In this document: positions 36,001 to 39,000 of the stretch, piece after piece
Position numbering within the stretch: position 1 is the stretch's first letter
How the letters are laid out: every line of letters begins with the position of its first letter
From: Pirellulales bacterium
Lineage (GTDB): Bacteria > Planctomycetota > Planctomycetia > Pirellulales > PALSA-1355
Direction: 5' to 3'
NCBI GenBank assembly: GCA_963733035.1
Contig: CAVTBU010000006.1
Coordinates: 832,001-896,000, forward strand
Length of the DNA stretch: 64,000 bases
Made by a program: the position numbers

Positions 36001-39000
36001 GATCAGCGGCGTGCGCCCGCAGGGTCGAAGTGAAGGCCATCGCTGGCAGCGCCAAGGCTGAGGCACCGGCCAAGTGTTCGAGAAAATGGCGGCGAGTCAT
36101 TCCGCGAGGCGTGGGCTGATTCATCATGGCCAATTCTCAAGTGAAGGTTGTGGGGTGTGCTAGCTGAGATTGCGTGGACAAGAGGCGGGTGATCTTTGCA
36201 GGTCAGTGATTGAAGATGAATTCGTTGCTATTGAGTAAAGCCCACCACACGTCTTGCATTGCCGCCGCGGAATCACCTTTGCGAAGTCGCAATAGATCGT
36301 TGGCTGCTGAAATTTCTCTGCCGACCGGTCGACGAGCCAGAGCCGCCAGATACAAGTGGTTGATTTTGGCCGCATTACTCATTTTCGCATCATTGGCTAT
36401 GCGATACAAGAAACTGCCTTTTTCGATGCTGGTCGCCTTGTTGATCAAATCACCGTTCATCATCATCAGAGCTTGAGGAATGGTACCGTTGAAAGTGGTC
36501 GTTTCCGCGTTGTCGTCCGTGCCAAATGCCAGCGTGAATTGGTTCAACCATTCGCGTTTCGTTGCTTCACGCTGTTCGTAGCTGGTGGCTGTGCGGTCGG
36601 CTTCGGTGGCCGCCAACAGCGACTCATAGAGCTCCTCGGCTCGCATTTGACGAAGGTAAAAGTGACTGAACGACGGACGCTGGCCAAGTGCCGGATCGTC
36701 GTCCTTGTTGCGCGGTGTCATCTTGCTCGACAGCCCGTACGGTTCGCTGAGCAGGATCCACATCATCAATTGCTTCAAGTCGTAGCTGTGTAACTTGAAT
36801 TCATTGGACAACGCCTCGAGCAACTCGGGGTGGCTCGGCGGATTGTGGGGGCCCATGTCGTCGATTGGCTTAGTGAAACCATAACCCAGAAAATGGCTCC
36901 ACATTCGATTGATGATTGCAGGCGCGAGATACTCGGAGTTGACGATCAGGTTGGCGAGTTCCGTGCGACGGTCGACATCGGCCACGTAGCCACTGTTACT
37001 TTCGAGCGTTTGCCCATCGACGAATACCGGGTAGGCAGCCTTTGACAGCCCATTGCGCAATTCATAAAACAGGACGGCTTCCTCGGGCCGGTTGTTCTCG
37101 CCCGCGAAGTCCTGATTGACCAGCTCGATCGATTCAATGTCGCGGCGATTTTCAAAGCGGCGCAGCGCTCTGGTCTGACGAAAGAAGGCGTTCATTTCCC
37201 AGAACTGGTTCTGTTTCCAGTCGTTGAACGGGTGATTGTGGCACTGCGTGCATTGGATTTGCAGTCCGAGAAAGATTTGGGCCGTTTTGGCCGTTGCTTG
37301 GACAGCGTTGTCCTCAAGGTTGCCGGCCATGAAGTTCACGAAACCATTGAAGTCTTTCTCGCCCGGTTTGCTGACCCCTTTGGCGCAGATCAGCTCGAAC
37401 ACGAGACGATCGTAGGTCATGTTGCGCTGGAGCGCGCGGCGGAGCGATTGAGCCAACCCTTCACGATTCACCAGAGAGCGGCGATCGGTGCCGCCAGACC
37501 TGCCGACTAGGATGTTCGTCCAGAGCGTCGTCCAGTTGCTCGCGTACTCCTCGATGTATTCATCGCCGAGCAGCCGGCTAACCAGCCGTAGTTTGCGCTC
37601 GGCGGCCGGCTCCGACAAAAACCGTTCCAGCTCGTCGACCTTGGGGACGCGCCCCAGCACGTCGAGATAGACCCGACGGCACCACTCGCCATCGGTGGCG
37701 TCGGGCGAGGGTGTGAGTTTATTGGCCTCCCAATGTGCACGGATCAGGCGATCAATCAGCGCAACCTGGGGGAAGGGGGGAGTACCAGCCGGAGATCCGG
37801 CGGCCACGCCTGGACGCGGCAGCACCGCGACCGTCAGCAGCAAGGCGACGGCCGCGGCCCGCGCCGGCCCAAACATGTGGCAAGTGGAGCACCCTCGAAA
37901 CAACGCAAATAGTCCCTGCGTCAGTGCCATTGGAAGGCCAAATTGTACGGCGAAAGCATTCGCCCAAACATCGCCCGCGACAAGACTCCTCCACCGGGCG
38001 CGACTGGGCTAAAGCCAAGTGGCAAGGGGGGGCTGATCGACATCCTGCCGGCCAAATCTGAACCCCAAGCTTTTCGGCCTACAATTCGGCGGCCGCAGGG
38101 CGATTTATTGCAGGAAATTTTTTTCGCGGAATTTTTTCGAGACTAAAGCAGGGACGTCTTTGCTATGTATCGTTTTAATGCATGTGTATCATTTTGCTGT
38201 ATTGAAATGCAACAGGCGAGTTGGAACCTTAAGACTGCATTCAGGTTCCAACTCGCCTTTGTGAAGCACGAAAACGCGCCTCCTCTTCGGACTCACGACA
38301 CTGGCCTCGCTGTTCCTGCAGGCCGTAAGTCCTTATTTCCTTTGCGCTTTCGCAGTTTGTTGCCATACCTCTTCTAGTAGCCGGCCCCAAAACTTGCTCT
38401 TCTCTGTTTCGGCCCCGACAGCCTCGTAAGGCATGACCTCTTCTGCTCCGCAGGGACTGAATAGCAAGCAGCGTGCCAAACTCGATCGCGCTGCGATCGG
38501 GGGCACCAGCTGCGGATTTCTTTCGCGGGCAGTCGTCTAGGCGGTGTCCTTGAATTGCATCTGATGCAGACGACGGTATAAGTCGCAGCGACCGAGCAGT
38601 TGATCGTGCGTTCCCAAATCGGCGATTTGTCCGCCGTTCATTACCAGCACACGGTCGGCTAGCGCTAACGTCGCCATTCGATGCGTGATGATTACGGTCG
38701 TCCGGTGCCGGATGAATTGCTCGAGCACTTTGTGAATCAGTTGCTCGCTTTCCAGATCGATCTGACTCGTCGCTTCGTCCAAAATCATGATCGCCGGATC
38801 GCGCAAGATCGCCCGCGCCAGGGCAATCCGCTGCCTTTGCCCTCCGGACAATCGGCCACCGCTCTGACCGACGATGGTTTCGTAACCCTGCTCGAGTTTC
38901 TGTTCGATGAATTTATGTGCATGGGCCTGTTTGGCGGCTTCGATGACTTGAGTCCGCGTGGCCTGAGGACAGCCGTATCGGATGTTGTTGAATACCGTAT

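Follow-up and report, generated by a model that had tools for sequence, protein, structure and literature searches.

A sigma54-driven planctomycete RNA complementary to the seed of a conserved sRNA: a probable sponge predicted to enter its partner's terminator

In the 64,000-nucleotide stretch of a Pirellulales genome analyzed here (the window), we found a cassette comprising a sigma54-type promoter, a predicted non-coding RNA of ~247 nt (38206-38452, minus strand, with both ends estimated) and a covarying closing hairpin, in which the RNA presents up to five sites complementary to the 23-nt seed of a small RNA (sRNA) encoded on contig C5 of the same assembly. The RNA pair is real and conserved, and we propose, with a probability of roughly 60%, that the sigma54-driven RNA is an inducible sponge, acting free of Hfq and ProQ, that opens the terminator of its partner. 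Briefly, we advance the following mechanism. A sigma54 activator bound to palindromes behind the RNA would loop back, aided by IHF bending the DNA midway, and fire the promoter. The purine-rich loops of the ~247-nt RNA would then pair with the invariant seed of the C5 sRNA, which has a constitutive-looking sigma70 promoter; this pairing is predicted, whereas its conservation is observed. The pairing would run 5 nt into the terminator stem of the sRNA, so that the protective 3' hairpin might open, leading to sequestration or decay. This may in turn release the mRNA targets of the sRNA, which are probably leaders carrying GGAACAG next to their ribosome-binding sites. Neither Hfq nor ProQ would be necessary for such an action.

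The promoter box, of the -24/-12 type (38463-38478, minus strand), is one of 18 matches to the strict sigma54 pattern across the 6.6-Mb genome, which also has an rpoN gene for RpoN itself and activator genes. The usual spacing from box to start predicts that transcription begins at about 38452, and for 45 of the 48 homologues the length from box to tail falls within 200-285 nt. The 263-nt strand following the box folds at -106 kcal/mol (z -6.2), a value equaled by none of 200 shuffles. It is closed by a 16-bp hairpin, a probable terminator (38214-38258, minus strand), with compensatory change in 10 of its 16 consensus pairs across 34 sequences. Its U-tract is interrupted in this genome and a strict terminator scan did not call it; several homologues have cleaner T runs. 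Neither the window nor any of eight homologous loci has an Rfam match that reaches the gathering score, the E-values being at chance level only. The genome-wide survey's note had described precisely such a locus, with a sigma54 promoter, a ~250-nt non-coding stretch, a closing hairpin that is weak as a terminator in this genome and no counterpart in Rfam, and this description is borne out by the sequence. On its upstream side the cassette is flanked by a gene for an MsbA-like ABC exporter (38537-40630, minus strand, with its stop at 38537; assigned by Pfam, with NCBIfam scores below the curated cut-offs). On the other side lie a PSCyt2 (DUF1549)/PSD1 (DUF1553) gene (36203-37930, minus strand), which is not beside the cassette in every genome, and a DUF1501 gene (34850-36133, minus strand), both recognized by Pfam. 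Between the closing hairpin and the PSCyt2 gene is a motif (38080-38111, minus strand), present in 23 of 48 homologous loci, that we presume to belong to the ECF promoter class and that is a candidate promoter for the PSCyt2/PSD1-DUF1501 genes.

The sites complementary to the seed all lie on the minus strand and differ in quality. Site B (38396-38416) is a near-perfect complement, matching at 19 of 21 positions, with no other near-complement in the genome; its purine run is placed in a hairpin loop, is unpaired in the ensemble, and has its GGGG end facing the terminator stem of the sRNA. Site C (38367-38388; -34.4 kcal/mol) is conserved and bipartite, complementing both ends of the seed around a variable middle; thus, of the two near-perfect complements previously proposed for this locus, one stands and the other is better described as split. 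The GGCC of site C closes the 4-bp stem that presents site B, and this stem displays no compensatory change. Site A (38436-38450; -26.9 kcal/mol), which is partly complementary to the free portion of the seed, is the most accessible site in this genome and varies among homologues. Site D (38303-38316; -28.8 kcal/mol) complements the seed core as GGAACAG with an internal deletion and is conserved within the family, and site E (38278-38290; -22.4 kcal/mol) is a weak and poorly conserved partial complement.

In these sequence comparisons the complementarity of the RNA to the seed exceeds chance. Across the genome, ungapped complements of the 21-nt seed occur once without mismatches (the sRNA itself) and once with two (site B), with none at one, three or four mismatches and nine places at five. 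Among candidates required to hold a 7-nt exact seed match, the two best sites no more than 150 nt apart sum to -71.1 kcal/mol, which is the first rank in the genome, the next non-coding cluster reaching -59.5. The best duplex, at -37.8 kcal/mol, lies well clear of the -25.0 +/- 3.2 of 60 dinucleotide shuffles (best shuffle -33.2), in line with the survey's figures for orthologous loci. Its further claim that this is the best intergenic duplex in the genome, at -42 kcal/mol, fails: the energy was not reproduced, and when single sites are ranked by their energy against the 23-nt seed, site B takes 11th place in the genome after the antisense of the sRNA itself, with several intergenic places slightly better. 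Nor does the gain on cofolding stand out in this genome (-17.2 kcal/mol vs -11.6 +/- 4.1 for 30 shuffles, the best of which reached -26.0). When the cost of opening is taken into account, with this genome's sRNA used throughout and three shuffles for each locus, the pairing beats its own shuffles in all 23 homologues scored from the 48 (mean -18.6 vs -7.9 +/- 3.5); the value of -15.4 in this genome is among the weaker ones of the homologues tested.

The genome search for the partner yielded a 21-nt match at C5:1027138-1027158, and the 23-nt seed, 5'-GGCCUCUUCUCUGUUCCGGCCCC-3', maps to C5:1027139-1027161 of this genome (G000; minus strand), where it is followed by a GC hairpin and T7. Read in order, the C5 element has a sigma70-like promoter, ~100 variable nucleotides, the seed, the GC hairpin and seven U. 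The seed is found with two or fewer mismatches in 56 of 61 related genomes (exactly in 52) and at three mismatches in 156 of the 251 genomes of a class-wide sample, with just 6 of 61 in one family; outside the class it was found in 0 of 187 genomes. A hairpin and T run terminate all 30 exact seed copies inspected and, by pattern, 78 of 80 named records; records with the seed include Pirellulaceae, Gemmataceae, Isosphaeraceae and others. The upper stem of this terminator covaries (four pairs, 99.3% paired, 53 distinct rows), the lower four pairs having been fixed by the exact search and hence lying outside the covariation test. As the 5' part ranges from near nothing to ~150 nt among the copies, the seed and the terminator together appear to be the working unit. 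A genome may have up to three copies, with two to three in some, the neighboring genes are varied and unrelated, and the element also occurs on three phage contigs. Taken together, the invariant seed, the covarying terminator, the varied neighbors and the phage copies make the C5 element look like a real trans-acting sRNA, and it is to the seed of this sRNA that the RNA in the window is complementary, as befits a sponge. The range of the sRNA among genomes is wider than that of its proposed sponge. Variant seeds occur in six genomes (G136, G103, G263, G205, G113 and G062), for which a strict pattern found no matching partner; because the seed hardly varies, no compensatory change between seed and site was found.

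At the level of the order, a strong site (energy past -33, a cut-off chosen after the data were seen) is present in 52 of 60 genomes, 48 of them with a box within 260 nt, and both partners are found in 48 of the 60. Among 30 loci chosen by their PSCyt2/PSD1 protein, from related genomes that are not independent of each other, 24 carry a site between -36 and -47, each with a box 60-199 nt upstream, in agreement with the earlier report of strong duplexes and boxes at orthologous loci. The six misses comprise two loci cut by contig ends and four paralogous loci in genomes with a cassette elsewhere. The survey had held four genomes (G014, G023, G026 and G039) to be devoid of the seed; on the contrary, all four carry the exact seed and the cassette, if the genome labels agree. 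We added 40 regions, of which the 20 picked by a complementary match are circular as evidence, whereas the 20 picked by gene position alone include nine positives; the rest are five paralogous loci, four genomes without the seed, G037 and a weak case, G053. Neither partner is found in G046, G054, G057 and G058, and in G046 the two genes that flank the sRNA are adjacent with the sRNA itself absent. The mismatched genomes, all drafts that are 74-94% complete, are G037, where the sRNA but no cassette was found, and G008, G009 and G020, where the cassette but no sRNA was found; in G017 a contig end truncates the sRNA. Among 40 loci read in one family (f33) of another order, seven genomes show the same site preceded at 57-62 nt by the box, although the surrounding sequence is unrelated, and six of the seven have a clear terminator. 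Beyond the order the occurrence is patchy, as the strict box-plus-site pattern occurs in 0 of 80 further genomes from other orders, most of them sRNA-positive.

The shape of the conserved pairing, the arrangement behind the RNA and the rival reading as an antiterminator are new here. Across 48 loci the best site is complementary at 81-100% per position over 21 nt, apart from two central positions at ~70%; outside this 21-nt site complementarity is at background, and conservation ends exactly where the sRNA turns variable. The conserved pairing extends 5 nt into the terminator stem of the sRNA and covers five of its eight pairs. It thus takes in a linear region together with the 5' arm of a terminator, which is the geometry of engineered transcription-activating RNAs (STARs). 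The net gain from invading the stem is about -1 kcal/mol for the finished sRNA vs -13 for the nascent RNA. As the gain on the finished sRNA is so small and yet the pairing is conserved, an effect beyond affinity is suggested, either antitermination or a decay that begins with opening of the 3' hairpin.

Behind the RNA are three 17-bp palindromes (38198-38214, 38185-38201 and 38166-38182, spanning 38166-38214, with no strand), which overlap the weak tail of the closing hairpin and are candidate sites for a sigma54 activator. We rejected them as RNA hairpins: their halves do not covary, the pairing being equal to that expected under independence, and for this reason we regard them as DNA sites. 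By a matrix made from 47 other loci they rank top in this genome; an extra palindrome is found at C7:603901, ahead of a broken response-regulator-like gene. A search of 78 genomes with the palindrome pair alone matched 25, of which 18 are seed-positive and 7 seed-negative. A box 264-345 bp upstream with strong sites in between is present in 14 of the former and none of the latter, although the seed match that defines this status may be the complementary site itself. Midway between the promoter and the palindromes is an IHF-like DNA site (38326-38338, minus strand), weak here with two mismatches. Matches to the E. coli IHF consensus are most frequent between +135 and +164 relative to the box, where the bins have 10 and 14 of the 38 loci as against 0-4 in other bins, A/T-rich palindromes excepted; this peak amounts to a hint only. 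The genome has 19 matches to sigma54 activators and three HU/IHF genes. We infer from this layout that the palindrome array might be a downstream enhancer of the sigma54 promoter. The literature searched yielded no paper on such an arrangement of promoter, RNA and downstream enhancer.

The entry into the terminator stem invites a different reading, which we consider unlikely: the C5 element would be an attenuator leader, and the sigma54 RNA a natural trans antiterminator that binds the nascent leader and takes the base of its 5' arm, with read-through into a hypothetical gene and a uronate isomerase gene. The conservation, at 81-100%, of the GGGG end and the preceding base despite the slight gain on the finished hairpin would suit this, as would a same-strand gene behind 106 of 160 scored sRNA copies, within 50 nt for 33 of them (the scoring left out 37 short loci, four without a call and 10 without a pattern-matched terminator, and may include duplicates). 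Further, UxaC has a single match in the genome, and this is the second gene behind the sRNA, after the hypothetical one; other copies are directly followed by canonical UxaC or RhaA genes, some at 15 nt. However, a terminator guarding a downstream gene is a feature of the order-level syntenic copies and not of the element overall: 13 of the 160 copies face convergent genes, 10 of them well-scoring, and the other neighbors are varied and unrelated. A one-to-one pair would need no invariant seed, G046 retains the downstream gene without the element, and both the two to three copies in some genomes and the three phage contigs speak against antitermination as the main role; moreover, read-through is explicable by leaky termination, and the opening of the stem fits decay equally well. 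We also hold it doubtful that the sigma54 RNA is a natural STAR in the fullest sense, one that would both switch polymerase from the class-wide repressor sRNA to the uronate-isomerase locus and sequester sRNA already completed, with the gene of the sigma54 RNA looped out between promoter and downstream enhancer. CsrB, RsmY and RsmZ are multi-site titrating RNAs, and CrcZ is driven by sigma54; all of these titrate proteins via short repeats, whereas the repeats here spell the complement of an RNA. A CsrA-titrating RNA of the CsrB/RsmY kind, with the complementarity secondary, would accord with the 14 csrA paralogues in the genome and with GGAAC located in loops, but is improbable given that, across 48 loci, GGA is not enriched (6.4 per RNA vs 7.1 in shuffles) and AGGA is depleted, while seed-complementary words are enriched 8-20-fold; the GGA of site B is also lost in this genome and others.

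The remaining readings concern what kind of gene this is. The survey had judged a sponge most likely and had left a long target leader as the alternative; its pairing with the C5 sRNA is supported by our sequence tests and the leader is weakened. Were the RNA a long 5' leader of PSCyt2/PSD1-DUF1501 under control of the sRNA, synteny with PSCyt2 in most genomes and the U-tract interrupted here would be expected. Yet the cassette is away from PSCyt2/PSD1 in three genomes: it precedes an ABC-F gene in G041, lies well before a MiaB-like gene in G050 (which joined the sample later than the other loci) and faces a convergent histidine kinase gene in G137, so that, judged by gene order, it moves as a unit independent of PSCyt2. 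The sites are also 440-520 nt ahead of the PSCyt2 start codon, behind the covarying hairpin, and the genes have a promoter-like motif of their own in 23 of 48 loci. The leader reading is accordingly quite improbable, and the question of sponge or leader leans toward a stand-alone gene, which has a promoter box, a covarying hairpin and mobility, with ends that are predicted. We assign an equally small chance to a reversed hierarchy, in which the sigma54 RNA would regulate mRNAs via its purine-rich loops with the C5 RNA as its buffer: the pairing is symmetric and one leader of this genome (C8:382782) has a seed-like pyrimidine run, but the C5 RNA is more conserved, more widespread and phage-borne, and it is the sites that vary and not the seed. 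Finally, a small peptide gene or chance repeats might be seen in the 33-codon frame that opens at 38434 after a purine run and in the 69 nt that separate sites A and C. This reading is largely refuted and has next to no probability: the 33-codon frame is not conserved, the longest ATG frames in homologues range from 0 to 87 codons without conservation, 27 of 39 homologues space their GGGG sites out of frame, and the shuffle and genome-wide tests reject chance. The earlier argument from site spacing against coding holds for most homologues, and the RNA is non-coding, as expected of a sponge.

Set beside known systems, as these are presented in the available portions of the cited sources, the sponge we propose has several partial counterparts. 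RosA of B. subtilis, a sponge of RoxS and FsrA that destabilizes its sRNA, is alike in size (~229 nt), in having its own promoter and terminator, in presenting several G-rich sites to C-rich sRNA regions, and in a setting where Hfq has no global role (PMC8216469). It differs in its sigma-A promoter, as against sigma54 here, and Rfam scans found no sequence match; conversely, the present RNA has a 21-nt near-perfect site that is predicted to enter its partner's terminator stem. CrfA of Caulobacter crescentus, a sponge of SisA-D, is likewise an inducible non-coding RNA that neutralizes a conserved sRNA and its sibling copies (PMC12559287), and QrrX and SroC are also inducible sponges of conserved sRNAs; all three are Hfq-associated, whereas neither Hfq nor ProQ was found in this genome (92% complete). 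The engineered STARs share the geometry, being trans RNAs whose complementarity spans a linear stretch and the 5' arm of an intrinsic terminator, but they are synthetic, unlike the present natural RNA, for which read-through is hypothetical; a natural counterpart is still awaiting discovery in B. subtilis according to the part of the review at hand (PMC10877136). The nearest natural combination of attenuator and sRNA is Rli51 of Listeria monocytogenes, a leader that works as an attenuator and also acts in trans as an sRNA (Rli51/Rli21) and whose termination is influenced by another sRNA; however, that partner binds the loop and promotes termination, whereas the effect predicted here is terminator opening (PMC11394854). 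Effects of sRNAs on Rho-dependent termination, and not the opening of intrinsic terminators in trans, are described in the available part of PMC6582626, and invasion of a protective stem has been linked to coupled decay for Qrr3 (PMC12205990). The Rhodopirellula-1 motif is also a planctomycete candidate RNA, but a single cis-acting hairpin in many copies (PMC2864571, in the part available); the rows compared share nothing with either RNA, a comparison made by description and not by model, the motif being absent from Rfam. The accessible parts of PMC12316311, PMC10632474 and PMC13443453 mention no such RNA, the last of these being the source for our description of the CsrA site.

In the literature searched, which includes few subscription papers, the RNA pair is undescribed, although supplements to planctomycete transcriptome and transposon studies may list the RNAs unnamed; nor did it contain a base-pairing sRNA described for Planctomycetia. 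As far as that literature goes, the sponge pair would be the first testable RNA-based control circuit for planctomycetes. The two members are well defined: a phage-borne sRNA whose 23-nt seed is the same in several orders, and its predicted inducible antagonist. Owing to the extended pairing, two short RNAs would suffice for a direct test. That the conserved pairing reaches into the terminator stem of the partner is unusual either way, whether it serves opening for decay or represents a natural counterpart of the engineered transcription-activating RNAs.

As for what the sRNA itself might act upon, several candidates for pairing with the seed were set aside. In this order csrA leaders pair barely better than random genes (-16.9 for 74 leader rows vs -15.8 for 250 genes), with no difference where a sigma54 box is present and one exception in G213; 16S rRNA, which is assembled, is no partner, there being no complement at up to four mismatches besides site B; and tmRNA was not detected in the genome. 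The top leader match, at C5:2522091, has no clear orthologue. Across 3843 leaders GGAACAGA was observed 13 times vs 4.7 expected, and the seed-core complement is in modest excess near ribosome-binding sites. For a DUF1598 gene, 14 of 30 orthologous windows retain this seed-core complement, but the motif resembles a CsrA site as well and the mean pairing is barely higher than in the coding control (-20.5 vs -18.9).

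Copies of the conserved small RNA (sRNA) from contig C5 lie directly upstream of a canonical uxaC or rhaA gene in several of the compared loci (L091, L094, L105, L113, L124, L128 and L141), with a gap of 15 nt in some of them. The element, comprising a promoter-like region, the exact seed and the terminator, is also carried by three viral (phage) contigs, with the seed at positions 601-621 in each (L494, L495 and L496); in the last of these, a gene for the terminase small subunit immediately follows it. The exact element further occurs in three records with non-planctomycete titles (L070, L112 and L132), where its presence probably reflects binning contamination.

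As for potential partners of the sRNA, a complement of the seed core is positioned immediately upstream of the ribosome-binding site of a DUF1598 gene, which is separated from the sRNA by some 12 kb (C5:1014581, minus strand, in the genome under study), and is kept in many members of the family (loci L459-L488); this is a candidate for either an sRNA target or a CsrA site. A complement with two mismatches in a related genome (L193, G059:C68:99534) is situated in a hairpin loop, preceded by a stop codon and followed by a terminator, and is a candidate second sponge, derived from a 3' end. Additional intergenic seed complements were recovered at L270 (G232:C11:34232), L272, L275 and L491, one of them downstream of a sigma54-like box and the remainder lacking such a box.

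The csrA family is strongly expanded, with 14 loci in the genome under study and 6-17 matches per genome across nine genomes; beside this large set, searches of the genome under study for Hfq and ProQ found neither. Several of the paralogues have sigma54-like boxes. In another genome (L247, G213:C83, ~15490-15680), the leader that such a box drives ahead of a csrA paralogue bears a two-mismatch seed complement, a layout that is not general among the 74 csrA leader rows compared.

Within the window, a short Cys/Gly-rich ORF (40927-41505, plus strand) is divergent from the ABC exporter gene; a Pfam search with it returned no match. A lone palindrome of the type found behind the predicted sponge RNA lies upstream of a sigma54-like box on C7 of the genome under study (L334, 602524-603917); farther along, a receiver-domain gene has its Fis-type HTH end in a different frame and is apparently broken. 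In two seed-negative genomes (L323 in G297 and L324 in G081) the palindrome pair persists devoid of sites, the box found 64 or 164 bp upstream of it is decayed, and these loci are possibly relics of the cassette. Finally, throughout family f32 of the class the seed is mostly absent; palindrome-like pairs are nevertheless present in a few of its members.
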